This document shows, piece by piece, positions 1 to 55,829 of a stretch of 64,000 nt of DNA. The DNA is from Spirochaetota bacterium (lineage in GTDB: Bacteria; Spirochaetota; Leptospiria; Turneriellales; CBDBES01): NCBI GenBank assembly GCA_965206985.1, contig CBDBLF010000011.1, forward strand, positions 91,384-155,383, given 5' to 3'. The translations under genes were made by a program, and so were the position numbers. Below the pieces are notes generated by a model. That model did no database searches and was not told the origin of the DNA. It saw only the letters and a program-made list of their open reading frames with translations. The number at the start of each line of letters is the position of its first letter. The first letter of the stretch is position 1.

Positions 1-775
1 TTTGATATTCTGATAAATTAATTTCTTTATATTTAATTGTTTTATTCAATGATTCGGCATGAGCGTTTTCATACACATTACCACGACACATGGAAATATT
101 GATTCTACTTTCTTCTAATAGAGCGATATACTCATTTGAGCAATATCTGACGTCAGCATCAGTATGATGGTAGTAATTTTGTAAATCTCCTATTTCTCTT
201 TTAAGCGAAAGAAAGGCTGCTATGACCAGTTGGGTGTTATTTTTATCAGAAATGGCCGCTCCTACGATACGGCGACTCATAAGCCTCATGAGCAAAGCTA
301 AATAGTGGTCTTTCGAATTAATATCAAAATAGGTTATATCGCCAACAATTACCTTGAAGGGATCAGCTTGCACACTTTTAATCAAATTGGGATATTTTCT
401 GAAATTATGCTTAGATTGGGTAGTTTTTGGCTTCAAAAACACCTTTTTAGTGCATAAAAGTCTATTTTCTTTCATAATTCGGTAAACTCGCTTCTTATTT
501 ATTGTAAAGCCTCTATCTTTTAGAATTTGCGTCATCGAGATATAACCTACTTGGTTCAATTGATCACTAATTTCATGGATAGATTTTAGAATCGTTGAAT
601 CATCTTTCTTCTCCTTCGACTTATAATAATAAGTTGACTTTTCTAGTTTCATAACTCTGCAACTCCTTGTGATCCCAAATTCTGTGCTGAGGCTATTCTT
701 GATAATTTCTCTTTTTGCCTGTATTCTTGAAGAAGTTTTTCCGTTTTTTTTAAAATCTGATTTTCTATCATTAAG
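1..775 (-). CDS. IS3 transposase OrfB (DDE), partial, reached by -1 frameshift
   Basis: Manual translation is open from 775 to base 1: CRVMKLEKSTYYY, INKKRVYRIMKENRL, VGDITYF, SRRIVG, HHTDADVRY, ISMCRGNVYENAHAESLNKTIK. Confidence 0.85.
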
Positions 776-999
776 TCAGATAAGGCCGATTCTAAATAGG
801 AAATTTTTTTTCTCAATTCTAACTCAACCCCATTTTTATCTTCAAAGCCTTCGGAAACCAGCTGTCGCTTCCATCTCGATAAAGTTGCGACTGAAATCAT
901 CTCTCTCTTAGATATTTCTGCCGTGCTAGTCTGACCTGAAATCATCTCCAAAGCCAATCTCTCTTTTGCTTCCTTACTGTATCTTTGTCTTTTAATCAT
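649..999 (-). CDS. IS3 transposase OrfA (HTH)
   Basis: RYSKEAK...ALEM...STAEISKREMIS..TLSRWK HTH pattern; AGGAGG RBS upstream of ATG at 999. Confidence 0.85.
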   Translation of the reverse strand: MIKRQRYSKEAKERLALEMISGQTSTAEISKREMISVATLSRWKRQLVSEGFEDKNGVELELRKKISYLESALSDLMIENQILKKTEKLLQEYRQKEKLSRIASAQNLGSQGVAEL

Positions 1000-1055
1000 A
1001 GTTTTACCTCCTAAATTTAACACAATAAAGTGTCCAGTTTTAGGGGGTTAAACCA

Positions 1056-3041
1056 TCTCTTACCTTCACAACAGAAAACCATAATCGACCACAAACGGTT
1101 ACCATCACATACCCCGAAGATATATATGCAAACGGGAATTTTCTATGTACGTTGAAACATACACTCACAACAGACGACCCTGTTTATCAAAATGTCTCGG
1201 AAGTGAACTTTCCTGAAGTGGTTCTTACCCTGAGTGATAATGATACACTTAATTTTCAGCCAATTGATAATAACGGTGCTTCCATCTCCTCTATAACAGG
1301 AAGAGAAGGCGAGACAACATCTTTTCAAATTAAGCCTTCGGTTACTTTGCACTCAGGAAGCACAATCACACTTGATGTGACCCCCTTGAATACCGACCAT
1401 ATTCAACTTGCTGACTCAAGTCAGAATTATAGCACAAGCCCCGTTCGGCTAACCTTTACAGACAGCAACCCTGTCATCGTCAATGTTAAGTTCATCGACA
1501 ATTCGGTGCAGACGACAGCGGATCTTCTTGCGACTAAAATTGTGTATTCTGTGGTAACGGACGGTGCAGATGCTCCTGTGATTAACGGAAAATTGTTTTC
1601 TCCTAACGGCGGTTTTGCTGAAGCCGGTGGTACATTAGACATCATGATTATAGATAATATTGCTGACGCTGACCGTGACGGTCTGATTGAAGTATGGAAT
1701 GCCACAATGCTAGACAACATGCGATATGATTTGGCAGGCACAAGTTATAAAACCTCGGCAACAGATCCAGGTGATTCCTCTGGTTGCCCAGCAGGTGGTT
1801 GTAACGGCTACGAGCTTACGGCGAATATTGATCTTTTAGACTTGCTTGATGCGAACAGGAGCGGCGAAATTGACAAGACCACGGTGACTTTTGCGAGCAA
1901 AGACCATACGGTGATTGATGTAAACAAAGATACCAGCTGGTCTCCGGTAGGTGACAACTCAACCAATAGTAATGCAAGCCGGTTTACGGGCACTTTCGAG
2001 GGTAACGGCCGCACCATCGCTAACTTGTGGGTGAATATTTCTTCTTCAGGTGATGCCTATGCAGGTTTATTTGGTCAGACTGATGGCTCAGCCGAGATAC
2101 GCAATGTGGGGGTTATCTCTGGTGGCGTTTCTGCTTCTCCTTTTGCTTCTTATTCCGGTGGTCTGGTGGGGCGTTCTTTTTCTTCCTTGACGATCACGAA
2201 TAGCTACTTTTCTGGGAGTGGTGATGTTTCTTCTTCTGCCATTAATGATTCTACTACTACTGAATCTTATTCTGGTGGTCTGGTGGGGAGTGTTTCTTCT
2301 GCTGCTTCTTTGACGATCACAAATAGCTACTTTTCTGGGAGTGGTGGTGTTTCTGCTTCTTCTGCTTCTTCTGCTTCTTCTGCTTCTTTTTCTTATTCCG
2401 GTGGTCTGGTGGGGCGTTCTTTTTCTTCCTTGACGATCACGAATAGCTACTTTTCTGGGAGTGGTGGTGTTTCTGCTTCTGCTTCTGCTTCTGCTTCTTC
2501 TTCTTCTGGTTCTAATTCTTATTCCGGTGGTCTGGTGGGTCTGGGTAATTTTTCTTCTTCTTTGACGATCACGAACAGCTACTTTTCTGGGAGTGGTGGT
2601 GTTTCTGCTTCTTCTTCGATTTCTTATTCCGGTGGTCTGCTGGGGCGTTCTTTTTCTTCTTTGACGATTACGAATAGCTACTTTTCTGGGAGTGGTGGTG
2701 TTTCTGCTTCTTCTTCTGGTGCGCTTTCTTATTCCGGTGGTCTGGTGGGGGGTTCTTCTAATACTCCTGTGATCATGAATAGTTATTGGAACATCGACGC
2801 ACCTCAATCAGGCGACAAGCGAGCGCAGGGTGATGCTGAGGCCGACCCCATGGGTGCGGTGAGGCTTACGCTCAATCAACTCAAAGCAACCAGTGGCACC
2901 TATCCTAATTTATTAGACAACACGTGGGATCTAGGCACCACGACGCAACTACCCGCAGTCAAACGATGCATCCTTGATATGGCGGGAACGGGCTGTGCAT
3001 CACCAGCTACATATAGCGAGCTACTCGCTGGGCAACGGTAG
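1056..3041 (+). pseudogene. GLUG-repeat beta-helix surface protein copy 1, 5'-truncated by IS3 (no signal peptide in the window)
   Basis: 1056-~1670 nearly identical to 4120-~4734; 2709-2964 identical to 5824-6079; 5 LTITNSYFSGSGGVS rungs; starts abruptly at the IS3 end. Confidence 0.85.
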
Positions 3042-3438: not shown

Positions 3439-6165
3439 GTGTGTGAAAAAAGAAGACGATTCATCTCTATTGTAATTTTTATAGTTAGGGGAATTTTGGT
3501 CTTAGCGATTTTTGGTTTTTCATTTCGGTGCGATGATCCGTTGGGCTTTCTTCTCGACGACACCAGTATGCGGGCGAGCGTAGACAAGCTTCTTGTTTAC
3601 GAGGGAAAATTGGCTTCCATTGGCTTTCGTCTTAACTCAAGTTTGTTTTCTGATGGAAAGTCAGCAACGCTTACCGCCAATTTAAGATGTAAAGGTCTGA
3701 GTAAGTCTGCACAAGCATCTCGCGTCACGATGGACAAAAACACGATTACGTGGACAAATTCTGACTGGGCAGCATGGAAAACATTTGTCTTCGATGCTCC
3801 TGATAATGAGAGGCAAGAGCCCTCTACAAATTGTGAACTCGTATTAGACCCCCTTGAGTCAAATGACGCTGGTTTTCATGGATTTAACAAGATTAAACCA
3901 ATTCCTGTTATTGTTCTCGACAATGACGGTGACGCAAATATTAAAGTGAGCTCTCGTAGTCTTGTGCTTCCCGAGGGCAGAAGTGTAAGTTATACGATTC
4001 GCTTAACAAATCGGCCTCATAATCAAGTGGAGGTGAACATTCTTCATAAAAATAACTTCCCTGAGTGGTTTTTGGTTTCCTCAAAACCAACCATTACAGT
4101 AGGAGGTGCCTATGTTAGCTCTCTTACCTTCACAACAGAAAATCATAATCGACCACAGACGGTTACCATCACATACCCCGAAGATATATATGCAAACGGG
4201 AATTTTCTATGTACGTTGAAACATACACTCACAACAGACGACCCTGTTTATCAAAATGTCTCGGAAGTGAACTTTCCTGAAGTGGTTCTTACCCTGAGTG
4301 ATAATGATACACTTAATTTTCAGCCAATTGATAATAACGGTGCTTCCATCTCCTCTTTAACAGGAAGAGAAGGCGAGACAACATCTTTTCAAATCAAGCC
4401 TCCGGTTACTTTGCACTCAGGAAGCACAATCACACTTGATGTGACCCCCATGAGCCCCGACCGTATTCAACTTGCTGACTCAAGTCAGAATTATAGCACA
4501 AGCCCCGTTCGGCTAACCTTTACGGACAGCAACCCTGTCATCGTCAATGTTAAGTTCATCGACGATTTGGTGGAGACGACGGCAGATCTTCTTGCGACTA
4601 AAATTGTGTATTCTGTGGTAACGGACGGTGCAGATGCTCCTGTGATTAACGGAAAATTGTTTTCTCCTAACGGCGGTTTTGCTGAAGCCGGTGGTACATT
4701 AGACATCATGATTATAGATAATATTGCTGACGATGACCGTGACGGTCTGATTGACATCTCCACTGCTACAATGCTAGACAACATGCGATATGATTTGGCG
4801 GGCACGAGTTATAAAACCTCGGCAACAGATCCAGGTGATTCCTCTGGTTGCCCAGCAGGTGGTTGTAACGGCTACGAGCTTACGGCAAATATTGATCTTT
4901 TAAACCTGCTTGATACGAATGGTAACGGCCAAATTGACAAGACCACGGTGACTGTTGCGGATGTTATGCATAGGGTGATTGATGTAAGCTCAGGCCAAGA
5001 TGAAAGTTGGGTTCCGGTGGGTAATAATGCAAACCGGTTTACGGGCACTTTCGAGGGTAACGGTCGCACCATCGCTAACTTGTGGGTGAATATTTCTCCT
5101 TCAGGTGATCACCATGCAGGTTTATTTGGTGTAACAGGTGACTCAGTTGCAATTCGTAATGTGGGTGTTGTCTCTGGTGGTGTTTCTGCTTCTGCTACGT
5201 TTTCTTATTCCGGTGGTCTGGTGGGTCTCTCTTCTTCTTCTTTGACGATCACAAATAGCTACTTTTCTGGGAATGGTGGTGTTTCTTCTTCTTCTCTTAC
5301 TGATGATTCTTATTCCGGTGGTCTGGTGGGGCGTTCTTTTTTTCCTTTGACGATCACGAATAGCTACTTTTCTGGGAGTGGTGGTGTTTCTGCTTCTGCT
5401 GGTTCGCTTTCTTATTCCGGTGGTCTGGTGGGTCAATCTACTAATTCTTTGACGATCACGAATAGCTACTTTTCTGGGAGTGGTGGTGTTTCTGCTTCTG
5501 CTTCTTCGCTTTCTTATTCCGGTGGTCTGGTGGGTTCTTCTTTTTTTTCTTTGACGATCACGAATAGCTACTTTTCTGGGAGTGGTGGTGTATTTTCTTC
5601 TGCTTCTGGTTCTTTTTCTTCTTCCGGTGGTCTGGTGGGACGTTCTTCTTCTTCTTTGACGATCACAAATAGCTACTTCTCTGGGAGTGGTGGTGTTTCC
5701 TCTTCTGCTTCTGCTTCTTCTGATCTTGTTTCTAGTTCTTATTCCGGTGGTCTGGTGGGTCTCTCTTCTTCTTCTTTGACGATCACAAATAGCTACTTTT
5801 CTGGGAGTGGTGGTGTTTCCTCTTCTTCTTCTGGTGCGCTTTCTTATTCCGGTGGTCTGGTGGGGGGTTCTTCTAATACTCCTGTGATCATGAATAGTTA
5901 TTGGAACATCGACGCACCTCAATCAGGCGACAAGCGAGCGCAGGGTGATGCTGAGGCCGACCCCATGGGTGCGGTGAGGCTTACGCTCAATCAACTCAAA
6001 GCAACCAGTGGCACCTATCCTAATTTATTAGACAACACGTGGGATCTAGGCACCACGACGCAACTACCCGCAGTCAAACAATGCACCCTTAATACCGCAA
6101 TGACGGGCTGTGCATCACCAGCTACGTATAGCGAGCTACTCGCTGGGCAACGTGTTAGCAATTGA
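3439..6165 (+). CDS. GLUG-repeat beta-helix surface lipoprotein copy 2 (Ig/Calx-beta-like N-terminal domains, 6 rungs)
   Basis: Basic N-region, hydrophobic stretch and FSFRC lipobox; Ig-like segments; DxDxDG motifs; GGLVG / ITNSY.SG.V GLUG repeats; C-terminal Cys pair. Confidence 0.85.
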   Translation: MCEKRRRFISIVIFIVRGILVLAIFGFSFRCDDPLGFLLDDTSMRASVDKLLVYEGKLASIGFRLNSSLFSDGKSATLTANLRCKGLSKSAQASRVTMDKNTITWTNSDWAAWKTFVFDAPDNERQEPSTNCELVLDPLESNDAGFHGFNKIKPIPVIVLDNDGDANIKVSSRSLVLPEGRSVSYTIRLTNRPHNQVEVNILHKNNFPEWFLVSSKPTITVGGAYVSSLTFTTENHNRPQTVTITYPEDIYANGNFLCTLKHTLTTDDPVYQNVSEVNFPEVVLTLSDNDTLNFQPIDNNGASISSLTGREGETTSFQIKPPVTLHSGSTITLDVTPMSPDRIQLADSSQNYSTSPVRLTFTDSNPVIVNVKFIDDLVETTADLLATKIVYSVVTDGADAPVINGKLFSPNGGFAEAGGTLDIMIIDNIADDDRDGLIDISTATMLDNMRYDLAGTSYKTSATDPGDSSGCPAGGCNGYELTANIDLLNLLDTNGNGQIDKTTVTVADVMHRVIDVSSGQDESWVPVGNNANRFTGTFEGNGRTIANLWVNISPSGDHHAGLFGVTGDSVAIRNVGVVSGGVSASATFSYSGGLVGLSSSSLTITNSYFSGNGGVSSSSLTDDSYSGGLVGRSFFPLTITNSYFSGSGGVSASAGSLSYSGGLVGQSTNSLTITNSYFSGSGGVSASASSLSYSGGLVGSSFFSLTITNSYFSGSGGVFSSASGSFSSSGGLVGRSSSSLTITNSYFSGSGGVSSSASASSDLVSSSYSGGLVGLSSSSLTITNSYFSGSGGVSSSSSGALSYSGGLVGGSSNTPVIMNSYWNIDAPQSGDKRAQGDAEADPMGAVRLTLNQLKATSGTYPNLLDNTWDLGTTTQLPAVKQCTLNTAMTGCASPATYSELLAGQRVSN

Positions 6166-6175: not shown

Positions 6176-6309
6176 TTTTGTCTTTACTATTTCTCATTAT
6201 TTCCGAACACCTGTTTAAACAAGTACACTGGGGGTGGTGGATCATGAGAAACTTCCATGTTGTTTGATCGTCTAAATATTGGACTTTTGATGCACCTTTT
6301 TCAGAAAAA
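6176..6309 (-). mobile_element. Diverged 5' remnant of the IS481-like element
   Basis: Reverse complement aligns to about 14675-14806 (AAAAAGGTGCATCAAAAG, TAAACAGGT.TTCGG, GAAATAGTAAAGACAAAA); translates MRNSKDK. Confidence 0.75.
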
Positions 6310-7888: not shown

Positions 7889-9472
7889 ATGTCCTCTGTT
7901 AGTCTTTATTCTTTTTGTATGTACCCGCTCTCTATTTTTATTTTTGCTCTCTACACTGTTGATGTCTTGATGATGCTTTATTTTGGTGTGCACTGCTATA
8001 TTATGCTATATTTGTATCTTAAAAATGGTAATAGATGCCACTCTGCGGGGATAGGGCTGGAATTGGAAGACACTAAAAAAATGAACGAATACCCGCATAT
8101 TACTGTCCAATTGCCAATTTTTAATGAATACTATGTGACGGGTCGCCTTATCGACGCTGTTGCTTTACTTGATTACCCCAAAGATAAACTGGAGATACAA
8201 GTTTTAGACGATTCCACCGACGAGTGTAAAGGTTTAGCCATAAGAAAGGTAAACCATTACCAGAAACTAGGTTTTGATATTCAACACATTCACAGAACTA
8301 ACAGAGAAGGGCATAAAGCAGGAGCCCTCAAGATGGGACTAGTAAAAGCTAAAGGCGAATTCATTGCTATTTTTGATGCCGATTTTGTTCCCACTTCTGA
8401 CTTCTTACAGAAAACGGTTCCGTTCTTCTACACTGATAGAAAAATTGGCATGGTGCAGGCTCGTTGGGGGCATGTGAACGACAATTATTCGCCTCTGACA
8501 AAAGCTCAAAGCATCGGGGTTGATGGACATTTCATGATTGAGCAAGTAGCCCGCAATGCTTCTGACCTGTGGATGAATTTTAATGGAACTGCTGGCATAT
8601 GGCGTAGAGAGTGTATTATTGATGCCGGCAATTGGCACTATGATACCTTAACTGAAGACTTTGATCTTTCATACCGAGCTGAACTAAAAGGTTGGAAGTT
8701 CAAATATTTGAGTGATGTTCTTTGTCCTGCAGAGCTTCCAGCTACTGTTACTGCTTTTAAATCTCAACAATTTCGCTGGTGTAAAGGTTCCATCCAAACA
8801 GCTGTCAAACTCATTCCCAGAATTTTGAAGTCAAAAGAATCATTGAAAGTGAAAATGGAAGCACTCACACACTTGCTCAATTATTCAGTACACCCACTTA
8901 TTTACTTAAATATTTTATTGACGATGCCTCTGATGTATGTGCAAGAGATGGTTCTTCAAGTTCCACTGCATTTCATACTTCCAATCATGTTGTTTTTAGG
9001 CTTTGCGACAATGGGTCCGTTTGTATTTTACGCAGTTGCACAAAGAAGTTTATATCCCGTCGACTGGAAAAAAAGATTGCGCTTCTTGCCCGTTCTTTCT
9101 ATGATCGGTTCGGGTATATCTCTGAGTAACACCAGGGCTTGGCTAGAGGGTGTTCTTGGTAAACAATCTTCTTTCGTACGAACGCCTAAGCTTGGGATTA
9201 CCTCCAGTGAGACAATTCAAACAGTAAAGAAGAAAAGCCGTTATAATCATTCTAAAATTGACCTTATAATAATTTTGGAGTTTTGTACTCTGGTTTATAT
9301 TATCGGAACAATCTGTTATGCAATTTCCCAAGAAAAATGGTTTTTCATCCCCTACTTGTTGATTTACCTGTCTGGGTTTCTCTATATTAATTTCTTGAGT
9401 TTTTCTGATTATTTTAAAATAATGTTTGGATCAAGTCAAGATAAAAAAGAGTTTGAGCAAAGTTCTGCATGA
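7889..9472 (+). CDS. Processive GT2 glycosyltransferase (cellulose synthase/CslA-like)
   Basis: VQLPIFNE, DDSTD, KAG, IFDADF, TEDFDL, QQFRW (QxxRW) motifs and TM helices. Confidence 0.9.
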   Translation: MSSVSLYSFCMYPLSIFIFALYTVDVLMMLYFGVHCYIMLYLYLKNGNRCHSAGIGLELEDTKKMNEYPHITVQLPIFNEYYVTGRLIDAVALLDYPKDKLEIQVLDDSTDECKGLAIRKVNHYQKLGFDIQHIHRTNREGHKAGALKMGLVKAKGEFIAIFDADFVPTSDFLQKTVPFFYTDRKIGMVQARWGHVNDNYSPLTKAQSIGVDGHFMIEQVARNASDLWMNFNGTAGIWRRECIIDAGNWHYDTLTEDFDLSYRAELKGWKFKYLSDVLCPAELPATVTAFKSQQFRWCKGSIQTAVKLIPRILKSKESLKVKMEALTHLLNYSVHPLIYLNILLTMPLMYVQEMVLQVPLHFILPIMLFLGFATMGPFVFYAVAQRSLYPVDWKKRLRFLPVLSMIGSGISLSNTRAWLEGVLGKQSSFVRTPKLGITSSETIQTVKKKSRYNHSKIDLIIILEFCTLVYIIGTICYAISQEKWFFIPYLLIYLSGFLYINFLSFSDYFKIMFGSSQDKKEFEQSSA

Positions 9473-9864
9473 ATCCAGTAGCCTTATTAGACAAGCATCA
9501 TCTGAAGGTCGTTAATCGACGCCAGAACTTTTCGCTTGGTGATAAGGTGTGTGTTTATTATAAAATAAAAGAAGGCAACAAAGAACGCATCCAGAAATAT
9601 GAGGGTACTGTCATTGCCATCAAAAATAAAGGTGCAGGAAAAAGCTTCACTGTCTATAGAGTCAGTTACGATGTTGGTGTTACAAGAGTTTTTCCTCTCT
9701 ATGCACCCACAGTCGAAAAAATAGAAATACTAAGAAGTAGTAAGGTACGGCGGGGAAAACTTTATTACCTAAAAGGAAAAACAGGAAAGCAGGCGCGTCT
9801 AAAAGAAATTAAGCGGGAACCAAAAATCGACCTGATTTATGAAGCCTCCCAAAAAATAAAGTAG
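9469..9864 (+). CDS. rplS: 50S ribosomal protein L19
   Basis: GDKV.V..KIKEG.KERIQ.YEG.VIA, SFTV.R.SY.VGV.R.FP, KVRR.KLYYL. Confidence 0.96.
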   Translation: MNPVALLDKHHLKVVNRRQNFSLGDKVCVYYKIKEGNKERIQKYEGTVIAIKNKGAGKSFTVYRVSYDVGVTRVFPLYAPTVEKIEILRSSKVRRGKLYYLKGKTGKQARLKEIKREPKIDLIYEASQKIK

Positions 9865-10551
9865 CTCCTTATTTTTGAAGACTCTTCTTTCTTAAAAAGC
9901 TACCCTGTTCATCCCAGTGCATATTACGCTTCATTTGATGAAGTAGGAAGAGGTTCACTTTTTGGGCCAGTTGCTGTTGGTGGTGTTTTATTTCCCTCTC
10001 AGGCGGTTTGTGAAATTCCACAGCTATCTTGGTATAATCAAGTTAAAGATTCTAAATTATTGGTCGAAATACAGAGAGAGAAGTTGCTTCCAAAAATAGA
10101 AGCAGCTTTTGTAACAGGGGTTTCATATGTGTCCAATCGTTATATTGATCGGTTTAATATTAATCTCGCAATTGAAAAAGCTCTCTATAGACTTGTACAG
10201 AGATTTAAAAGAATTCTCAAGAAAAAGAAAGATTCACCCAAACTCCAAACTATCTTTTTTGATGGGAACTATTGTTTCAAGTCCTCTGATTGGATTACTC
10301 AGGATAGCATGATGCCTCAGATAAAGCATATCGTTAAAGGAGATCAACGTCTATTTACAATCGCCTGTGCCTCAATTGTCGGTAAGGTTTACAGAGATAA
10401 TTTGATCAAAAAAATAGCTAAAAAATATCCTGACTACCATTTAGAGACTAACAAAGGCTATGGAACAAAAAAACATCGATTAGCAATTCAGGAGCTAGGC
10501 ATTACTAAACATCATCGTATGAGTTTCTTGAGCAATATAGTTGTTATTTAA
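9865..10551 (+). CDS. rnhB: Ribonuclease HII (start codon uncertain)
   Basis: DEVGRGSLFGPV at 9937 (upstream of the ORF-track start, same frame), VKDSK, KGD....IACASI.GKV.RD, NKGYGT..H; no ATG/GTG/TTG between the rplS stop and the catalytic motif. Confidence 0.9.
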   Translation, partial: LLIFEDSSFLKSYPVHPSAYYASFDEVGRGSLFGPVAVGGVLFPSQAVCEIPQLSWYNQVKDSKLLVEIQREKLLPKIEAAFVTGVSYVSNRYIDRFNINLAIEKALYRLVQRFKRILKKKKDSPKLQTIFFDGNYCFKSSDWITQDSMMPQIKHIVKGDQRLFTIACASIVGKVYRDNLIKKIAKKYPDYHLETNKGYGTKKHRLAIQELGITKHHRMSFLSNIVVI

Positions 10552-10557
10552 TCAATC

Positions 10558-11967
10558 ATGGAAGACGGCATGAACCTGATTGGTAAATCAAAATTTTTAC
10601 TTGTATCTGAGGAGAATCAGGAACGCATTGTTGAGACAGTAAAGTCTTTAATAGAAAGGGAAAGCCTCAATTTTCTAAAACAAATTTTATCTCGACTGCA
10701 TCCTACAGATATTGCCAAATTATGGCATTTCTTTAATTTGCAAGAAAAGGAGTTTTTGCTCTCTCTTTTGGGAGTAGGGGCTAGCGCTGGCTTGCTTTCA
10801 GAATTAGAAGTTAAGCAGCGGTTTGAAATTTTCAAAGAAAAAAATATAGATTGGATTATGCACCGATTGGAAGAATTAGAAACTGATGATGTTGTGGATA
10901 TCCTAAAGGAGTTGCCCACAAGAAAGGCAAACTTCATTATACGAAAATTTGATAAAGAATATTCAAAGAAAATTAAAACCTTAATTAAGTATCCTGAAGA
11001 AACCGCTGGTTCGCTCATGAGTTCTAACTTTTTTGCTGTCAATCAAAATGCTAAAATTAACGATATTATCGAACAGTTTCGTAAAATTGAAGAAAAAGAA
11101 GAAGTTAAACATTTACAATTCATCTATGTCGTCAACGGCAATGATCACCTTTTGGGTTATATTGCACTCCGTAAATTAATATTAGAGAAATCAACCCAGA
11201 CGGCAAAAAATATAATGAAGCCTCTTCCTTTATTGATTACGCCACTGATGGATCAAGAAGAAGTTGCTCGGATTTTTAAAAATCACAATCTAATCTCTCT
11301 CCCCGTGGTGGATGATAAAAAAGGTGTTTTATTAGGTAGAATCACTATTGATGATATTGTGGATGTTTTGGAACACGAGGCATCAGAAGATGTATTTAAA
11401 ATGGTAGGCTTAAACGCAGGTAAAAGTATTACGAATAGTGTTTTTCACTCTTTGAAAAGCCGTTTTCCCTGGATGTTCATAAATTTAGGTGCAACGATCT
11501 TATCAGCCTTGGTAATTGCGCATTTCAGACCTACTCTTGAGAAATATATTATTTTGGCCGTTTTTATGCCCATGATTGCTGCGTTGGGTGGTGCTACTGG
11601 AAATCAAGTTGTCACTATGATTGTGAGAGGTTTAGCGTTAGGTGAAATTCATTTGAAACAGGCCAAGTCGTTTCTCATTCGAGAGATAGGAACTGTTCTG
11701 GTGGGTGGTTCAATGATTGGAATGACCATGGGTATTTTTGCTTACTATTTTTATGACCAAAACAGTATTGAGTTCGCATCTCTTGTCGCAGGAGCGCTCG
11801 TCTTCAATATGCTTTGTGCTGCAACGATTGGCACAACGATACCACTTACTCTCAAATTACTTGGCTTTGACCCGGCCGCTGGTTCTTCCATGTTGGTTAC
11901 GACGTTGACAGATATTGCAGGATTCTATATTTTTTTAGGTTTTGCAAGCATTTTTTTGGTTAACTGA
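10558..11967 (+). CDS. mgtE: Magnesium transporter MgtE
   Basis: N-domain, YPEETAGSLM, CBS pair, GRITIDD, TM domain with GGATGNQ and TTLTDIAG. Confidence 0.95.
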   Translation: MEDGMNLIGKSKFLLVSEENQERIVETVKSLIERESLNFLKQILSRLHPTDIAKLWHFFNLQEKEFLLSLLGVGASAGLLSELEVKQRFEIFKEKNIDWIMHRLEELETDDVVDILKELPTRKANFIIRKFDKEYSKKIKTLIKYPEETAGSLMSSNFFAVNQNAKINDIIEQFRKIEEKEEVKHLQFIYVVNGNDHLLGYIALRKLILEKSTQTAKNIMKPLPLLITPLMDQEEVARIFKNHNLISLPVVDDKKGVLLGRITIDDIVDVLEHEASEDVFKMVGLNAGKSITNSVFHSLKSRFPWMFINLGATILSALVIAHFRPTLEKYIILAVFMPMIAALGGATGNQVVTMIVRGLALGEIHLKQAKSFLIREIGTVLVGGSMIGMTMGIFAYYFYDQNSIEFASLVAGALVFNMLCAATIGTTIPLTLKLLGFDPAAGSSMLVTTLTDIAGFYIFLGFASIFLVN

Positions 11968-14500: not shown

Positions 14501-14554
14501 TTGAGTACTCTTGTTAGATAACGTTTGTTGTAAAGAATATTTTTTAATAACGAT

Positions 14555-15830
14555 GGGAGAGAGAAGGATGATAGTACCCCCCTACGACCATCATTAGTTG
14601 GTTCAGAATTGGTTCAAATCAAGTTATTTGGTTCAAAAGGCTTGGGTTTACTGGTAGAGCAAGTGAAAGACATTTTCCTAAAAAAGGTGCATCAAAAGGC
14701 CGACGTTAAATCATCAAATAAAACAGAGGTTCCTAATGAAGCACCCTTCTCAGGTTATTTGTCTAAACAGGTATTCGGCAGTAATGCGAAATAGTAAAGA
14801 CAAAAAGTTATACAGAATGCAAATGGTTCATTATGCCAAGAAGCATGGTTTCAAGCCAACAGCCAGAATGTTTAAAACGACTGTAAAAACAGTAAAAAAG
14901 TGGTTTCGTAGGTTTGAATCAGAGAAATACGTTGGCTTGGAAGACAAGAGCCACGCTCCACACTACTCACCACATGCAATCACAGACTTTGAAAAGGCTT
15001 ATGTTTGCTTTCTTAAAAAGAAACGTCGAGGCTTTGGTGCTCAGGAACTGAAGAATGTTTACCAACTAGACTTGAGTGTCAAGGCCATTCGCAGAGCGTG
15101 GAGGGAGCAAGCACTCTTGAAAAAAAAGCGTAGAAAACATAAAACGAAGCAAAATTTGCGTGAAATTAAGAAATTATGGGGTTTATTTAAGCAATTTGAC
15201 GTAGATACGAAGCATTTATACGATATTCCTGAGCTTTGGCCTTATATTCAGGAAAATATTGTACCGAAATATCAATATACCTTCAGAGAAGTTTTTTCTG
15301 GCTTACAATTTCTAGCTTTTGCAGATGAGTATAATATGGCATACTCTTGTCTGTTTATGGAGGTAATTTTAGATCATCTTGTAAAATCAGGGGTTGATTT
15401 AAAGAAAAATAATACGAGAGGGCAAACAGATAATGGCTCAGAGTTTATTGGTGCTTGGAATAAAAAAGGAGATTCGGAGTTTACAAAAGTATTAGCCAGT
15501 TATGGTGTGCCACACCAGACGATCCCTGCTGGAGCGCATACTTGGCAGTCTGATGTTGAAACGACTCATAGATTGATTGAGGATCACCTTTACCTGAATG
15601 AAACGTATAATTCAAGAGAAGACTTTCTCAACAAAGCTGGCTCCTATCTATTGATGTTCAATTCAATAAGAAAAAATTCTTACAAAGAGAATAAATCGCC
15701 CTGGCAGCTGATCCGAGAGGAAAGCACAACTATTGACAAACAAATATTAAATTTACCACCGTTTCGACTGGACTATTTATTTCAAAAGATGCCAATGGTC
15801 GTAGGGGGGTACAATCCTATTCTCCATCCC
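14555..15830 (+). mobile_element. IS481-like insertion sequence, copy 1 (1276 bp)
   Basis: Imperfect IRs GGGAGAGAGAAGGATGATAGTACCCCCCTACGAC / GTCGTAGGGGGGTACAATCCTATTCTCCATCCC; direct repeat TATTTTTTAATAACGAT at 14538-14554 and 15831-15847; matches 22948-24223. Confidence 0.9.
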
Positions 15831-15869
15831 TATTTTTTAATAACGATAGAACAAGTAAGAAGGCTTTAA
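14736..15869 (+). CDS. IS481-like DDE transposase (stop codon lies outside the element)
   Basis: N-terminal HTH, DVDTK, QTDNGSEF, QSDVE..H.LIE. Confidence 0.88.
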   Translation: MKHPSQVICLNRYSAVMRNSKDKKLYRMQMVHYAKKHGFKPTARMFKTTVKTVKKWFRRFESEKYVGLEDKSHAPHYSPHAITDFEKAYVCFLKKKRRGFGAQELKNVYQLDLSVKAIRRAWREQALLKKKRRKHKTKQNLREIKKLWGLFKQFDVDTKHLYDIPELWPYIQENIVPKYQYTFREVFSGLQFLAFADEYNMAYSCLFMEVILDHLVKSGVDLKKNNTRGQTDNGSEFIGAWNKKGDSEFTKVLASYGVPHQTIPAGAHTWQSDVETTHRLIEDHLYLNETYNSREDFLNKAGSYLLMFNSIRKNSYKENKSPWQLIREESTTIDKQILNLPPFRLDYLFQKMPMVVGGYNPILHPYFLITIEQVRRL

Positions 15870-20676: not shown

Positions 20677-20748
20677 TCGGGCCGACTGGATTCGAACCAG
20701 CGACCACACGCCCCCCAGACGTGTGCGCTACCACTGCGCCACGGCCCG
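20677..20748 (-). tRNA. tRNA-Pro(GGG)
   Basis: Cloverleaf CGGGCCG...CACGT-CT GGG GG-GCGTG...GCTGG TTCGAAT CCAGT...CGGCCCG A; no encoded CCA. Confidence 0.93.
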
Positions 20749-20767
20749 TTTTTATTAGTAAATAGTG

Positions 20768-20840
<73 letters not shown>

Positions 20841-22864: not shown

Positions 22865-22947
22865 CTTTTCTCAAGCGGCTAAATGCACAACGCCTGCCAC
22901 TCTTTCATTTTTTATAACATGGTCAAGATTTATTTTTTACCCATTTT

Positions 22948-24223
22948 GGGAGAGAGAAGGATGATAGTACCCCCCTACGACCATCATTAGTTGGTTCAGA
23001 ATTGGTTCAAATCAAGTTATTTGGTTCAAAAGGCTTGGGTTTACTGGTAGAGCAAGTGAAAGACATTTTCCTAAAAAAGGTGCATCAAAAGGCCGACGTT
23101 AAATCATCAAATAAAACAGAGGTTCCTAATGAAGCACCCTTCTCAGGTTATTTGTCTAAACAGGTATTCGGCAGTAATGCGAAATAGTAAAGACAAAAAG
23201 TTATACAGAATGCAAATGGTTCATTATGCCAAGAAGCATGGTTTCAAGCCAACAGCCAGAATGTTTAAAACGACTGTAAAAACAGTAAAAAAGTGGTTTC
23301 GTAGGTTTGAATCAGAGAAATACGTTGGCTTGGAAGACAAGAGCCACGCTCCACACTACTCACCACATGCAATCACAGACTTTGAAAAGGCTTATGTTTG
23401 CTTTCTTAAAAAGAAACGTCGAGGCTTTGGTGCTCAGGAACTGAAGAATGTTTACCAACTAGACTTGAGTGTCAAGGCCATTCGCAGAGCGTGGAGGGAG
23501 CAAGCACTCTTGAAAAAAAAGCGTAGAAAACATAAAACGAAGCAAAATTTGCGTGAAATTAAGAAATTATGGGGTTTATTTAAGCAATTTGACGTAGATA
23601 CGAAGCATTTATACGATATTCCTGAGCTTTGGCCTTATATTCAGGAAAATATTGTACCGAAATATCAATATACCTTCAGAGAAGTTTTTTCTGGCTTACA
23701 ATTTCTAGCTTTTGCAGATGAGTATAATATGGCATACTCTTGTCTGTTTATGGAGGTAATTTTAGATCATCTTGTAAAATCAGGGGTTGATTTAAAGAAA
23801 AATAATACGAGAGGGCAAACAGATAATGGCTCAGAGTTTATTGGTGCTTGGAATAAAAAAGGAGATTCGGAGTTTACAAAAGTATTAGCCAGTTATGGTG
23901 TGCCACACCAGACGATCCCTGCTGGAGCGCATACTTGGCAGTCTGATGTTGAAACGACTCATAGATTGATTGAGGATCACCTTTACCTGAATGAAACGTA
24001 TAATTCAAGAGAAGACTTTCTCAACAAAGCTGGCTCCTATCTATTGATGTTCAATTCAATAAGAAAAAATTCTTACAAAGAGAATAAATCGCCCTGGCAG
24101 CTGATCCGAGAGGAAAGCACAACTATTGACAAACAAATATTAAATTTACCACCGTTTCGACTGGACTATTTATTTCAAAAGATGCCAATGGTCGTAGGGG
24201 GGTACAATCCTATTCTCCATCCC
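22948..24223 (+). mobile_element. IS481-like insertion sequence, copy 2
   Basis: Same IRs and body as 14555-15830; direct repeat TTATTTTTTACCCATTT at 22930-22946 and 24224-24240. Confidence 0.9.
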
Positions 24224-24271
24224 TTATTTTTTACCCATTTGAAACAAAATAAGAGGTTGGGAAGGAAATAG
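23129..24271 (+). CDS. IS481-like DDE transposase, copy 2 (different C-tail from flanking DNA)
   Basis: Same as copy 1 up to NPILHP, then LFFTHLKQNKRLGRK. Confidence 0.88.
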   Translation: MKHPSQVICLNRYSAVMRNSKDKKLYRMQMVHYAKKHGFKPTARMFKTTVKTVKKWFRRFESEKYVGLEDKSHAPHYSPHAITDFEKAYVCFLKKKRRGFGAQELKNVYQLDLSVKAIRRAWREQALLKKKRRKHKTKQNLREIKKLWGLFKQFDVDTKHLYDIPELWPYIQENIVPKYQYTFREVFSGLQFLAFADEYNMAYSCLFMEVILDHLVKSGVDLKKNNTRGQTDNGSEFIGAWNKKGDSEFTKVLASYGVPHQTIPAGAHTWQSDVETTHRLIEDHLYLNETYNSREDFLNKAGSYLLMFNSIRKNSYKENKSPWQLIREESTTIDKQILNLPPFRLDYLFQKMPMVVGGYNPILHPLFFTHLKQNKRLGRK

Positions 24272-25843: not shown

Positions 25844-26458
25844 CTATAATCCTCCTGCAGCTCTCAATTCCATTGGATCGTTAATGGTATGGGCATAGGC
25901 GGGAGTACCCAACTTGCTGAGTCTCTTAGGCAAACTACCTCTAGCGCGTTCCCGAGGCATAGAGATTGCAAACAAATTCATGTTCTGGGCTTCTTCTAAC
26001 ACCTGCTGAGTGCCGCCATTATACCGATAGAGTGCCCAGATCAAATTCTGATAACCCAGCTTACGAGTTTCCTCGTAGACCTCTGGCTGATAAAACTGTG
26101 GAATGACGCGCACTTTATAATCTGCGATGTGAGCAGCCAAATACTTCAGTCCTTCAATAGTGTCGCTCTTGACATCGGTAACCAGCTTCATCTGCGGATG
26201 ATCATGCATGATGTCGGCCAGAATGCGGACATCTATTTGCATATAACCGCTACCGGATTCCCAACTTAGAAACTCCTCCCGTAGTGGCGGCTCGACCAAT
26301 TTCTCTCCAAAATGTACGCCCGTCGATACCCCCACCGGCATGAGCAGCTCACAAAGCGCAGCAGTACAAATAAAGAACCCGCTAACCCACTCAACAGTAA
26401 TCGCTTTGGCGAGATTGTGCGACTGATCAATGTCGCAGCCCCACGGCTTTGATGGCAT
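25844..26458 (-). pseudogene. Truncated glycerophosphodiester phosphodiesterase-like fragment, GC-rich
   Basis: C-terminal LVTDVK, VIPQFY, LIWALY, YAHTIND; N-terminal catalytic part not recognisable. Confidence 0.5.
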
Positions 26459-26530
26459 GAAATATCACCAGAGATAACCCCCACATTACGGATCATGATC
26501 GGTTCCATCCACAAAACCAAACAGACCCGC
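26459..26530 (-). pseudogene. Frameshifted fragment of the GLUG lipoprotein family
   Basis: AGLFGFVDGT/(shift)/IRNVGVISGDI; 22 nt AATGTGGGGGTTATCTCTGGTG identical to 2103-2124. Confidence 0.7.
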
Positions 26531-47577: not shown

Positions 47578-48641
47578 ATTTAAGAGAAATCGCTGAAAAG
47601 CTCGGCCTTGAATTCCGTGGTGATCCTGAGAAAAAAATTTCTCAAATTAGAGATTTAGGGAGACTAACTTCCTCAGAATCAATTGTTCGAGATGCCATCT
47701 ATTATGTAGAGAACCAAAGAATTCTGAAGAGATACCTCTTTCTTGAGAAAAAAAAAGAAAGCATAAGTGTCTTAACGTTAGAGTCTCTGGCTGGCCATTT
47801 TATTAATACGCTGATTGCTTCCGAAAACTCTATTAAGCTTTCTTTTATCCAATTATTAACGTTGTTTTCAAAAGAGCCTGATTTTACATTCGAGAAAAAT
47901 ATAATTGATCGATCAAAAAGTTTCATCCATGAGTTGGCGAAAGTGAGTCCATCAGCAATTATTATGCCACAAGCAGTTGTGATGCAAGGAGCCGAGATTG
48001 CTGATGAAGCAATTATATATCCCCATGTGACGATTGGTCCTGGTGCTAAAATTGGCAAACAAACCTTACTTCATCCTGGTGTCGTTATTGGTTATAATTG
48101 TATCGTAGGAAATCACTGTATTATTTATGGGGGTTCTGTGATTGGTGCCGATGGCTTTGGTTATCATGATTACCAAGGGAAGCGGTATAAAGTTCCTCAG
48201 GTGTCCCACGTTGAAATTCATGACTACGTTGAAATTGGAGCTAATTCGTGTATTGACCGAGGAACCATTGAACCCACGATTATCGGTGCTCATACGAAAA
48301 TTGATAACCAAGTGCAAATTGGACATAACTGCGTTGTGGGTGAACATGTTATTATGGCAGGGAATGTCGGTGTATCGGGTTCTGTCACTATTGGTAATCA
48401 AGCCATTCTTGCGGGAAAAACAGGCGTCAGTGAGCACGTCCATATTGCTGAAGAGGCAGTAATTATGGGGGCTAGTGTGCTACTTTCTGACGCAAAGCCG
48501 AAGACTGCCTACTTTGGCTATCCCGCTAGAATTTCTATTGAGGCGCACCGTATTGATAAGGCAACTGCTCGCTTACCAGAGCTTTTAAAACGTGTGAAAA
48601 TATTAGAAAAAAAAGTTTATGGCCAGAATGATGGCAATTGA
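47574..48641 (+). CDS. lpxD: UDP-3-O-acyl-glucosamine N-acyltransferase
   Basis: Hexapeptide repeats, [30 protein letters not shown]. Confidence 0.95.
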
Positions 48642-49038
48642 TTACGGCAGAAAAAGGGTTGGTCTCGCTGTAACCGATGAGGTTCATCGATTAATAACCC
48701 CCTTAGCTCAGGTTCAATTTAATCAGAAAAACTCATGGGCGGAGCTATTTCATGTGATTCAAGAAAATAACCCTCAAAAAATTATAATAGGGGACCCTGA
48801 CTCTCAGACCAATCAACAAGTAAGACAAGAAATTCTTGATTTCAAGAAAAAACTTGGTAAACTATTTCCTAAGATCACCTTTACTTTCTTTGATGAGAGC
48901 TACTCTTCAAAAGAAGCCAAGGACATTGTAATTGAACTGAGTGGCTATGGCTTTAAGAAAGTAAAAAAGAGAAAAGATAAACTAGACTCCGTGGCCGCCG
49001 CCTTAATTTTGCAAAGATACTTAGAAGCTTTTTTATAA
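48619..49038 (+). CDS. ruvX: Holliday junction resolvase-like RuvX/YqgF
   Basis: [35 protein letters not shown]. Confidence 0.92.
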
Positions 49039-49084
49039 TACAATTTCTGTGAAAAAGCATGTTTATTGGCTTCATAAGTATCTT

Positions 49085-49414
49085 TTCCTGGGCCTACATC
49101 AATCACCGTATGCATTTGACTCGCAACAGTCACCGTGGTCTTGTCAATTTGGCCGTTATCATTCGCATCAAGCAGGTTTAGCTGAGGTTTTATAGATCGT
49201 TCCTGCCAAAGTGTAACGTATGTTGTTTAGCCTCGGCACTGGAGATTTCAATCAGATCGTCACCGTCAGCGTCAACTGTTACATTGCCACCATTGCTACT
49301 TGGAGCATTATTATTATTACACTGAAATAAAAAGCCCAAGGCGACAAAAGCCAGTACCCATAGTAACCTTATTGAATGATTGTCTTGTTCTTTTATACAT
49401 AATAAATTATACAC
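49085..49414 (-). pseudogene. GLUG lipoprotein family copy C: frameshifted, internally deleted, 3'-truncated
   Basis: LGFLFQC lipobox, DADGDDLIEISSAE/(shift)/LNNIRYTLAGT.YKTS/(deletion)/LNLLDANDNGQIDKTTVTVA; 49122-49158 identical to 4923-4959. Confidence 0.82.
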
Positions 49415-49456
49415 AACAAACCCCTTCTGGGCTAGCTTATTAGCTCACCCAGAGCC

Positions 49457-49485
49457 ACTATACAGTGAACAGTACCGAAAGTCAA
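49457..49485 (-). promoter_or_regulatory. Putative sigma70 promoter of GLUG copy C
   Basis: TTGACT-17-TATAGT, same hexamers as upstream of copies A and B. Confidence 0.65.
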
Positions 49486-49525
49486 CAAAAAAAGTTAGAG
49501 CTGTTGGGAGAGAGAAGGATGATAG

Positions 49526-51411: not shown

Positions 51412-51889
51412 GTAGGGGGGTACAATCCTATTCTCCATCCCTAAAAAGTTAGAGCTGTATAGAAACCAATTACATATCTGACAAATTTTCTTCCTCGAAA
51501 ATGCCCTGCCTTCCCTTTGGAAGTTTGCCTCTTCAGTTCAAAAAAGGATAAAGTACCTCATTTCACAAGTAATTACGGGCAGGGAGATTTTCTCTCTTCC
51601 TGATCTTGACAATAATATGCAACCCAGCTCAAACGTGAATCTTTCCATTCAAAGAGAAGACCGAAATACTCAAGAAATTGTTGTGAATGAGTTTCTTGAA
51701 TGGTATGGTTGTGGTATGGTTTTAAGAAGAAACATCCCACCAATTGATTGTGTAACTCGCTCGCCCTTGTGTGGCTGTAGGTAGGAGCCTTCGCTCCTGT
51801 GCAGGAGCGAGGGAGGAGTACAGGAGTTGAAAGCGTCTGAGTAGACACCCACTCTCAGAATCACCCAAGCTGTTTGCGACCCGCTAAGG

Positions 51890-53665: not shown

Positions 53666-53716
53666 AAATTTAATTCCTCCTGCATTCTAATCCGTTTGTG
53701 ATTATTCGTGGAGCGT

Positions 53717-54011: not shown

Positions 54012-55829
54012 TTACCGTTGCCCGTCGAGTAGGTCGCCATACATAGCTGGTGATGCACAAGTCCCCGTTCCCGCCATATCAAGGATGCATCGTTTGACCG
54101 CGGGGAGTTGCTGCTCAGTGCCTAAAACCCACGCGTCGCCCAATAAATCAGGAAAGGTGCCACTCGTTGCTTGTAGTTCAGCGAGTGTAAGCCTCACCGC
54201 ACCCGTGGGGTCGGTCATCTCATCACCCCGCGCTCGCTTGGGATTCTGGGGCGACCCGTCTACTAATTGAGGTGCGTCGGTGTTCCAATAGCTATTCGTG
54301 ATCGTCAAAGAATCAGAAGAGAAACCCACCAGACCACCGGAATAAGAAATCGAAGAAGAGGAAGAAGAAACATCACCACTCCCAGAAAAATAGCTATTTG
54401 TGATCGTCAAAGTACCAATAGCAACACCCACCAGACCGCCAGAAGAAGAAAGCGAAGAAGAAGAAGAAGAAGAAGAAACACCACCACTCCCAGAAAAGTA
54501 GCTATTCGTGATCATAGAAGTGGCATCAGAAGAACCCACCAGACCACCGGAATAAGAAATCGAAGAAGAGGAAGAAGAAGAAACACCACCACTCCCAGAA
54601 AAGTAGCTATTCGTGATCGTCAAAGAAGAAGAAGAAGAACCCACCAGACCGCCAGAAGAAGAAATCGAAGAAGAGGAAGAAGAAGAAACACCACCACTCC
54701 CAGAAAAGTAGCTATTCGTGATCGTCAAAGAAAAAGAAGAAGAAGAAGAACCCACCAGACCACCAGAGAAAGAAGAAGAAGAAGCATCAGAAGAAACACC
54801 ACCACTCCCAGAAAAATAGCTATTCGTGATCGTCAAAGAAGCATCAGAACGCCCCACCAGACCGCCGGAAGAAGAAGAAGCAGAAACACCACCACTCCCA
54901 GAAAAATAGCTATTCGTGATCGTCAAAGAAGCATCAGAACGCCCCACCAGACCGCCGGAAGAAGAAGCATCAGAAACATCGCCAGAGATAATTCCTACAT
55001 TGCGTATCTCGGCTGAACCACCTGTCGCACCAAAGAAACCCGCATTGACATTGCTTGTAGAACTCACCCGGATGTTTGCGATCGTGTGGCCGTTACCCTC
55101 AAAAGTGCCCGTAAACCGGCTTCCACTATTACCTACCGGAACCCAACTGGCGTTTGAGCCTATATCAATCTTGGCCATGAGCTCGTAGCCGTTGCAACCT
55201 GTGTCTGGGCAACCTCTACTGTCATCTGCATCCATTGCCGAGGCTTTATAACTCGTGCCCGCCAGATCATGTCGCATCTTGTCTAGCATTCTGCCAGTCC
55301 ATATTTCAATGAGCCCATCGCCGTCAGAATCGGGGATATACGGCGTTACCGTCACGTTGACCATGCTCCCCATCATGGCAAATTCAGCGAACTCGGTGTC
55401 AGTAGTTATGGCATGCTCTATGGTACCTATTATCTCGTCCATAATAATATCAACCGCATCATTTGCTCTTTTTACGGTAATCGTCTGGGGGCTCGCATTC
55501 GTAGGCGTAAACATAACCCGCTTTGGGGATACCCCAAGCGATGGATCGGTGGAGGTTAGTTTTACCTCTATTGTTTTCTCTGCTGATGGTGGGCGTGACG
55601 CCGAAATCATGTAGGTGGCACCCATTGCCCCACTCACGTCGCTGAAGGTGACCTCTTGAGTACTGAGCTCTAAGGTGACCAGAGCAGGGTCGTCATCTTT
55701 GGCAGAGTCACCGTCTTTGACAGAATCGTCGCCTTTACCGCATTGAAATAAAAAGCCCAAGACGAATATTAATAATATACCCCTCACCATTTTACTAAAC
55801 ACTCCATTCATTCTAAGATTTAGACTCAT
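54012..55829 (-). CDS. GLUG-repeat beta-helix surface lipoprotein copy A (6 rungs)
   Basis: Tandem paralog of copy B; same leader and lipobox; lacks the DTNGNG segment. Confidence 0.88.
   Translation of the reverse strand: MSLNLRMNGVFSKMVRGILLIFVLGFLFQCGKGDDSVKDGDSAKDDDPALVTLELSTQEVTFSDVSGAMGATYMISASRPPSAEKTIEVKLTSTDPSLGVSPKRVMFTPTNASPQTITVKRANDAVDIIMDEIIGTIEHAITTDTEFAEFAMMGSMVNVTVTPYIPDSDGDGLIEIWTGRMLDKMRHDLAGTSYKASAMDADDSRGCPDTGCNGYELMAKIDIGSNASWVPVGNSGSRFTGTFEGNGHTIANIRVSSTSNVNAGFFGATGGSAEIRNVGIISGDVSDASSSGGLVGRSDASLTITNSYFSGSGGVSASSSSGGLVGRSDASLTITNSYFSGSGGVSSDASSSSFSGGLVGSSSSSFSLTITNSYFSGSGGVSSSSSSSISSSGGLVGSSSSSLTITNSYFSGSGGVSSSSSSSISYSGGLVGSSDATSMITNSYFSGSGGVSSSSSSSSLSSSGGLVGVAIGTLTITNSYFSGSGDVSSSSSSISYSGGLVGFSSDSLTITNSYWNTDAPQLVDGSPQNPKRARGDEMTDPTGAVRLTLAELQATSGTFPDLLGDAWVLGTEQQLPAVKRCILDMAGTGTCASPAMYGDLLDGQR

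Follow-up and report, generated by a model that had tools for sequence, protein, structure and literature searches.

The DNA analyzed here, the window, is a stretch of 64,000 nucleotides of a metagenome-assembled contig of 734,679 bp (CBDBLF010000011.1, positions 91,384 to 155,383) from an uncultured Leptospiria-class spirochaete. It holds four members, one pseudogene and one relic of a family of genes for predicted GLUG-motif beta-helix lipoproteins. Members of this family exchange DNA segments, and the nearest relative is not the same for every segment of one gene. The clearest instance lies near the 3' end of the member that we call copy 1, where a tract of 35 nt is identical to a dispersed paralog, copy A, and differs from the tandem neighbor, copy 2, to which the preceding sequence is perfectly identical. 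Gene conversion among paralogs is the best explanation of this tract, and we hold it with good confidence; the exchange, we infer, was homologous recombination without reciprocal transfer, and it involved both tandem and dispersed paralogs.

A mosaic tract at the C-terminal cysteine loop

The genes and segments on which the argument turns are these.

1056..3041, plus strand: copy 1, a 5'-truncated long-type gene with a GLUG (PF07581) match; the frame is open from 1044
3439..6165, plus strand: copy 2, a full-length long-type gene of 908 residues, listed as P0027
51890..53665, minus strand: copy B, a short-type gene of 591 residues with a signal peptide and the lipobox-like FLFQC, listed as P0011
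54012..55829, minus strand: copy A, a short-type gene of 605 residues, full length, with a signal peptide
2958..2992, plus strand: mosaic tract of copy 1, GTCAAACGATGCATCCTTGATATGGCGGGAACGGG, encoding VKRCILDMAGTG, the start of a Cys-x8-Cys loop near the C terminus
54064..54098, minus strand: identical 35-mer in copy A, encoding VKRCILDMAGTG and followed by an extra Thr codon
6073..6107, plus strand: counterpart of the tract in copy 2, encoding VKQCTLNTAMTG; 9 of 35 positions differ from copy 1
2707..2964, plus strand: perfect identity of copies 1 and 2 over 258 bp (copy 2 coordinates 5822-6079)
2952-2964: left flank of the loop, CCCGCNGTCAAAC, conserved
2994..3009, plus strand: right flank, a 16-nt block, TGTGCATCACCAGCTA, invariant in six of six aligned genes

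An initial annotation of the window had equated 2958-2992 with the reverse complement of 54064-54098, and this identity is exact over all 35 nt, ending at a mismatch at 2957 on the left and at a 3-nt insertion in copy A after 2992 on the right. It had also placed 256 bp of identity to the tandem neighbor before the tract; that identity is real, although its length is 258 bp (2707-2964), and it overlaps the 35-mer by 7 nt. The informative sites of the tract lie at 2965-2990. Copy 2 departs from copy 1 here, as had been claimed, at nine sites, all within 2965-2988. The change of relationship is abrupt: across 2740-2957 copies 1 and 2 show no difference in 218 positions and copies 1 and A show 46 in 209, across 2958-2992 the counts are nine and zero in 35, respectively, and across 2993-3038 copies 1 and 2 differ at only two of 46 positions. 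At all nine differences between copies 1 and 2, copy 1 has the state of copy A, and at six of them copy 2 has that of copy B. Both loop alleles are already present in other paralogs, and transfer therefore fits better than new mutation. The length of the match is unremarkable on its own, because copies 1 and A share 36 exact matches of at least 24 nt, reaching 45 nt, in the conserved cores of their GLUG repeats; the 35-mer crosses the most variable stretch of the C-terminal block.

The comparison at the DNA level covered six family genes, namely copies 1, 2, A and B of the window together with L8a and L8b, which are found on L008 (ENA ERZ25069296) of a closely related strain (L8b is listed as P0030). 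The core alignment consisted of two non-repeat blocks of copies 1, 2, A and B, with 657 ungapped columns, 207 of them polymorphic; the repeat arrays were excluded from the conversion tests because their units have no unambiguous alignment. In a GENECONV-style (Sawyer-type) test, in which the polymorphic sites were permuted 10,000 times, two fragments were significant among the four genes. One joins copies 1 and A at 2965-2990, with 15 consecutive concordant polymorphic sites (pairwise P ≤ 1e-4, global P = 3e-4), and the other joins copies 1 and 2 at 2718-2957, with 68 (pairwise and global P ≤ 1e-4); the remaining pairs among copies 1, 2, A and B gave no significant fragment, pairwise or global. 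When the test was rerun with six genes, the fragment of copies 1 and A gave P = 8e-4 and that of copy 1 and L8a P = 1e-3, and copy 2 shared with L8b a fragment at 2753-2770 (P = 2e-3), a patch that encodes SSNTPVIM and is common to copies 1 and 2 and L8b. L8b is itself a mosaic.

Other statistics agree. With copies 2 and A as parents and copy 1 as child, a 3SEQ-style test gave P = 1e-4, and the pairwise homoplasy index (PHI) test gave P = 0.01. The differences between copies 1 and 2 are clustered, with nine in the 24 positions of 2965-2988 and five in the 299 of the rest of the C-terminal block (Fisher P = 2e-8). Among 64 quartet-informative sites, 50 favor the grouping (1,2|A,B) and 10 favor (1,A|2,B), and six of these ten are consecutive, at 2976-2987 (P = 2e-4). 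Fragments thus survive correction in recombination tests of the kind that the annotation had proposed, and, when alignment windows are compared, one tree does not fit all of them.

The pattern is not peculiar to this pair of genes. In a set of about 45 close homologs, practically every combination is found of left flank (TTT or TDQ), residue before the first Cys (R, Q or L), loop type and tail type. A second genome offers an independent replicate of the Cys-loop mosaic. The GlnA protein of the window organism is 92% identical to one from an ENA metagenome-assembled genome (MAG), 78% identical to one on a contig of 1,922,353 bp, a length that matches OZ253494.1 (“Leptospiria bacterium”), and about 70% identical to Leptospirales and Spirochaetia MAG proteins. 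In OZ253494.1 the family stands in tandem arrays of four genes (L001 859-11419) and two genes (L002 10001-16467), and one gene of the latter, L2b, has a loop cassette identical to those of L1b and L1c, some 250 kb away, between flanks that match its neighbor L2a (global P = 0.003).

Segmental, non-reciprocal exchange had been proposed in the initial annotation from a wider patchwork, of which the mosaic ancestry of the main tract is significant and the supporting examples are not. The 37-mer at 4923-4959 of copy 2 is indeed the exact reverse complement of 49122-49158 in pseudogene C, but it does not amount to a significant conversion fragment: the run gives P = 0.036 uncorrected and, as a fragment of copy 2 and L8b, a pairwise P of 0.011 and a global P of 0.089. 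The 37-mer is common to copy 2, pseudogene C and L8b, and over a 101-nt overlap pseudogene C has 12 mismatches to copy 2 and 25 to copy 1; we take it as a borderline case that reflects the subfamily relatedness of these three. Likewise, the 22-mer at 2103-2124 is exactly the reverse complement of 26466-26487 in the relic, yet conversion is rejected here, the match lying within the conserved motif IRNVGVISG, where the other copies differ by only 1-4 nt. The sharing of DTSW and NISSSG.AYAGLFG by copies 1 and B did not withstand testing as conversion (fragments “DTSW” and “SKDH”, global P 0.28-0.50). DTSW belongs to the family consensus and AGLFG is conserved family-wide, so that both are retained states. 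The departures of copy 2, QDESW and SVAIRNVG, are found in its counterpart P0055 as well, and the SAEIRNVG of copy 1 is found in copy A, P0036 and P0031. Retention of ancestral states, which the annotation had named as the alternative, accounts for the shared DTSW and AGLFG but not for the main tract.

Partner, direction and competing explanations

Copy A is not the specific partner for which it had been taken, because L8a, L8b and P0017 carry the same loop. L8a and L8b match the loop DNA at 33 and 34 of 35 positions, respectively, and P0017, a paralog encoded on the same contig outside the window, matches VKRCILDMAGTGCASPA of copy 1 exactly and lacks the extra Thr of copy A. The allele, ILDMAGTG, occurs commonly among short-type genes (copy A, L8a, L8b and P0017), and copy A is one of several carriers rather than a demonstrated donor. 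Copy 2 has the allele TLNTAMTG, which resembles the loops of P0010 and P0031, the former encoded on the same contig and containing VKQCALNTAMTSC. In its DNA this loop differs from all five other copies at 9-10 of 35 positions, so that the description of copy 1 as the gene that switches partner, and hence as the recipient, does not hold as it stood; copy 2 may have been the one to change.

Comparison of the predicted proteins points to concerted evolution. Long-type genes are paired in two other genomes as well (P0036/P0025 and P0031/P0055), and the central domain of copy 1 clusters with that of P0031 or P0036 in 96% of bootstraps and with that of copy 2 in 2%, copy 2 being closest to P0055. 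Over the C-terminal 100 residues, copies 1 and 2 are mutual nearest neighbors in 99.8-100% of bootstraps. The tandem pair has thus undergone concerted evolution within this genome. P0036 carries ILDMAGTG together with the copy 1 tail ATYSELLAGQR, a combination that may have a long history in the copy 1 lineage; the loop is TLDTAMTG in P0031 and ILDTTMTG in P0025, and the TLNTAMTG of copy 2 may likewise represent the older long-type state. The C terminus of copy A is identical to that of P0001, a 92%-identical counterpart in another genome. Copies A and B both keep the loops of their counterparts there, P0001 and P0013, which is consistent with non-reciprocity.

The events envisaged are as follows. 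Copies 1 and 2 would recently have been homogenized over at least 258 bp and about 50 bp downstream, and the 25-35 nt that encode the Cys loop would either have escaped homogenization or have been overwritten. The near-invariant sequences on its two sides, CCCGCNGTCAAAC on the left and TGTGCATCACCAGCTA on the right, would give recombination a foothold, and loop alleles would thus assort semi-independently of their flanks across the family. Three scenarios may be entertained: copy 1 received its loop, copy 2 received its loop, or homogenization of the pair skipped the loop, which could occur through a discontinuous tract or patchy mismatch repair.

Several considerations weigh against gene conversion as set out above, or at least blunt it. 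The DNA comparison covered six family genes only, with the true orthologs (P0036, P0025, P0031 and P0055) and other paralogs of this genome entering as proteins, a set too small to fix direction and donor. At positions where copies 1 and A encode the same amino acid, the codons are identical in 10 of 10 cases within the tract and in 102 of 131 elsewhere (P~0.08), and synonymous-site identity was accordingly set aside as too weak a proof of recent transfer; nor does it discriminate among the three scenarios. The loop is the most polymorphic part, where conversion is most detectable, and bias in detection could make it look like a hotspot. The sequence comes from assembly of a metagenome. Finally, the anchors of 13-16 nt are shorter than the identity usually required for RecA-dependent exchange, which makes the direct transfer of a short patch from an 80%-identical donor mechanistically awkward.

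Of the competing explanations, the one to be taken most seriously makes copy 2 the recipient. The pair would first have been homogenized over its entire 3' end with ILDMAGTG in place, after which copy 2 took a short QC(T/A)LNTAMT patch from a P0010-like paralog located outside the window, and the identity of copies 1 and A would reflect only the family-wide ILDMAG allele. Several observations suit it: P0036, a copy 1-type gene elsewhere, reads ...VKQCILDMAGTGCASPATYSELLAGQR, with loop and tail as in copy 1; the P0010 sequence matches copy 2 down to the Gln codon that is the first differing site; the copy 2 loop is equally far from all other DNA copies; and L8a and L8b have a nearly identical ILDMAG cassette. 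Against this, the TLDTAMTG of P0031, a long-type protein grouped with copy 1 by its ...LLAGQR ending, and the ILDTTMTG of the copy 2-like P0025 imply that T-L-[DN]-T-A-M-T-G may be original and ILDMAGTG the import, and P0010 and P0036 were compared as protein, not as DNA. We consider this direction possible, though on balance doubtful. Transfer of the loop between strains, by allelic recombination in which the copy 1 locus acquired DNA from a strain that already had it, would be served by the existence of close strains in other samples (the IS481-like insertion sequence (IS) element common to L008 and the window is 100% identical over 1,279 bp) and by the presence of the P0036 combination elsewhere. 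It merely shifts the origin of the mosaic, since a loop allele found on short-type paralogs still needs a paralog-to-paralog transfer somewhere, and the 258 bp of perfect identity with the adjacent copy 2 are most simply a single-genome event; we think it very unlikely.

It is a little less probable again that no exchange took place, with the tree ((copy 1, copy 2),(A, B)) holding throughout, the copy 1 tract retained and the copy 2 loop evolving fast under positive selection. The loop is hypervariable in sequence and in length (4-18 residues across the wider family), the synonymous identity in the tract is only marginally unusual, and retention does account for the DTSW and SAEIRNVG examples. 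Yet this account demands nine substitutions in 24 nt following none in the preceding 258 nt, which the Fisher test above speaks against; six of the nine copy 2 states are found in copy B also, the whole allele recurs in other paralogs, and loop and tail types exist in all combinations. Least probable, by a small margin, is an artifact of metagenome assembly or polishing in which paralogs or strains would have been joined into a chimera. Misassembly classically arises from repeated paralogs, and not only this contig but also the NCBI and ENA MAG proteins of its relatives derive from metagenomes. However, the assembly spans kilobase-scale repeats of 99.6-99.9% identity within the window, and this implies the use of long reads; to build a k-mer chimera, two switches would be required, at junctions where the three-way shared sequence is only 7 nt and 4 nt; like mosaics are seen in an independent MAG and in L8b; and P0036, from another assembly, encodes the loop and tail of copy 1. 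Gene conversion among paralogs, whichever of the pair received the loop, is what we prefer.

The gene family and its genomic surroundings

The family is large, with no fewer than nine members on the contig of the window; a relative has at least 24 on a contig of 2.13 Mb. A scan of genome contigs for further relatives found distant ones only, at 49-50% identity or less, a scan of metagenome contigs found no close match, and a full-text literature search for “GLUG motif” returned unrelated matches only. From their sequences, the genes are predicted to encode GLUG-motif beta-helix lipoproteins, of which uncultured spirochaetes of the class Leptospiria have many paralogs in each genome. Copies 1, 2, B and A score 23.3-36.6 bits against Pfam GLUG (PF07581), for which the gathering cut-off is 20.5, and the Pfam search of the copies found no protease domain. 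A member begins with a signal peptide that has a lipobox-like Cys and continues with an Ig-like domain and a beta-helix; the Cys-bounded loop lies in the C-terminal tail. A hydrophobic helix followed by ...LGFLFQC, a putative lipobox with its Cys invariant in the alignment, is present in copies A and B and in most homologs.

The AlphaFold2 model of copy A has a mean predicted local distance difference test score (pLDDT) of 78. It starts with a signal helix, continues with an Ig-like sandwich around residues 50-160 and then forms a beta-helix of regular short strands at about 240-520 (pLDDT > 90); for residues 534-604, the C-terminal tail of some 70 residues that includes the tract, pLDDT is below 50 and the fold is not resolved. 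The top Foldseek matches of the beta-helix are 3n6z (E = 1e-6) and 7uvk.

Within each copy, 5-7 tandem units, about 99-126 nt long (typically ~105 nt), form an array; they encode LTITNSYFSGSGGVS...YSGGLVG. The arrays and the further traces of the family in the window are as follows.

2147..2759, plus strand: GLUG repeat array of copy 1
5175-5874: GLUG repeat array of copy 2
52159-52751: GLUG repeat array of copy B
54289-54978: GLUG repeat array of copy A
~49080..49414, minus strand: pseudogene C, with signal peptide and central-domain fragments, frameshifted and 3'-truncated
~26459..26529, minus strand: family relic of about 70 nt, AGLFG...IRNVGVISGDIS
649..1055, minus strand: IS3-type remnant (HTH_Tnp_1 orfA at 649-1023) that adjoins the point where copy 1 is truncated

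The number of units varies between copies, and the units themselves vary mainly in the length of a poly-Ser (TCT/TCC) linker. Genes with only ~80% identity overall share identical repeat cores of 45-55 nt, and the arrays, to judge by their sequences, may also undergo homogenization or slippage. Opposite each array lies an antisense open reading frame (ORF) of 221-259 residues, rich in Arg and Thr (2088-2807, 5143-5922, 52139-52804 and 54267-55016); these look like by-products of a Ser/Gly-rich periodic coding sequence rather than genes.

Neither a signal peptide nor a start region was found for copy 1, whose homology to copy 2 begins abruptly at 1056/4120. Despite the lost start, it keeps an unbroken frame of 666 codons (1044-3041); a recent truncation would explain this, as would preservation of the frame by exchange with copy 2. 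Pseudogene C is a decayed counterpart of P0030/L8b, and 3401-3761 of L008 matches 49525-49181 of the window at 84%. The relic directly adjoins the start of an ORF of 204 residues (25844-26458) that has no Pfam match, and its frame (26266-26520) continues into that ORF, as if a deletion or fusion had left a scar at the junction.

IS elements are abundant in the window. Two IS481-like elements (14554-15839 and 22947-24233) are 99.9% identical, and an inverted end fragment of this element, 125 bp long (6176-6300, 77% identity), lies immediately downstream of copy 2; with the IS3-type remnant 5' of copy 1, IS remnants therefore bracket the copy 1/copy 2 pair. A further IS, with DDE_Tnp_1_6 and DUF772 domains, is present in two copies (35531-37411 and 49526-51406) that are 99.6% identical over 1,881 bp, the second of them sitting between pseudogene C and copy B. 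Directly past copy A begins a prophage-like block on the minus strand (56229-63956), with a capsid protein (PF25209) and DUF2586. On the relative's L007 (GlnA 92% identical), at 9202-11123, ndk and thiG come after ruvX, and family genes are absent there; in the window, at 48619-56000, ruvX is followed by pseudogene C, the IS, copies B and A and the prophage block. Since the neighbors of ruvX differ between the two, the cluster is a lineage-specific insertion or rearrangement. Elsewhere in the window, genes for tRNA-Pro(GGG) and tRNA-Val(TAC) are adjacent on the minus strand (20677-20840).

Comparison with known systems

Known beta-helix proteins with GLUG motifs (Pfam PF07581) include the putative IgA1 protease BACOVA_03286 (PDB 3n6z) and the IgA1 protease of Gemella haemolysans (PDB 7uvk). 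The family described here resembles them in that all four copies have GLUG matches above the gathering score and a beta-helix is predicted by modeling. It differs in its domains, which are a lipoprotein signal, an Ig-like domain, a beta-helix and a Cys-loop tail, with no protease domain detected.

Among spirochaetes, the obvious comparison is with tprK of Treponema pallidum, which undergoes segmental gene conversion from silent donor cassettes (PMC7593977, PMC8480903, PMC10063172); mosaicism is also described for genes of outer-membrane proteins of T. pallidum (PMC6016234). In tprK and in the GLUG genes alike, a short variable segment between conserved sequences is replaced from elsewhere in the genome of a spirochaete, and here a truncated, probably unexpressed copy 1 stands beside the full-length copy 2. 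As in programmed variation of the tprK, vlsE or pilE type, the variable segment is bounded by conserved sequence, CCCGCNGTCAAAC on one side and, in six genes, the 16-nt TGTGCATCACCAGCTA on the other. Such systems also have an expression site and a silent, promoterless archive, and here the correspondence ends: copy 1 is the sole truncated copy, pseudogene C and the relic have decayed, and copies 2, A and B are full length with signal peptides, rather than there being one expression site and a bank of silent cassettes. There is one variable loop, whereas TprK has seven V regions; the GLUG copies have no sequence relationship to Tpr proteins; and the comparison is between genes, not between variants within a population. 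It is therefore with little confidence that we raise the idea of a cassette-shuffling system, in which alleles of a surface-exposed, disulfide-bounded C-terminal loop between invariant anchors would be actively exchanged among a dozen or more paralogs per genome and copy 1, 5'-truncated yet with its frame open, would serve as a silent archive for its expressed neighbor. Were this unlikely proposal true, it would amount to tprK-like or vls-like surface variation on a GLUG beta-helix lipoprotein in a small-genome, IS-rich and possibly host-associated member of the Leptospiria.

A closer parallel is provided by ectopic gene conversion and concerted evolution in bacterial multigene families, which have been surveyed (PMC6053082) and of which the outer-membrane paralogs babA and babB of Helicobacter pylori are an example (PMC4552749, PMC3960876). 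Here too, paralogs within a genome are closer to one another than they are to orthologs from other genomes in some segments only, as seen at the protein level, and transfers are short, apparently non-reciprocal and productive of chimeric genes for surface proteins, with tandem and dispersed copies involved. The differences lie in the protein, a GLUG beta-helix lipoprotein rather than a Hop-type beta-barrel; in the organism, which is uncultured and known from sequence alone; and in the size of the family, which is much larger (at least nine members on this contig and 24 on that of the relative).

For the GLUG lipoproteins, a practical consequence is that whole-gene alignments cannot yield orthology or trees for the family. 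Two separate genomes show the Cys-bounded loop at the C terminus assorting independently of its flanks. Should the swapping of loops be frequent and under selection, the loop would be the functionally exposed part that determines interactions, and the swapping would constitute a strategy of surface variation in a spirochaete lineage known only from metagenomes. The mechanism itself is not new, conversion among surface-protein paralogs being a standard route to both homogenization and diversity in bacteria, as in the bab genes; the novelty lies in the setting, a family of GLUG beta-helix lipoproteins, large and apparently undescribed, in uncultured spirochaetes of the class Leptospiria.

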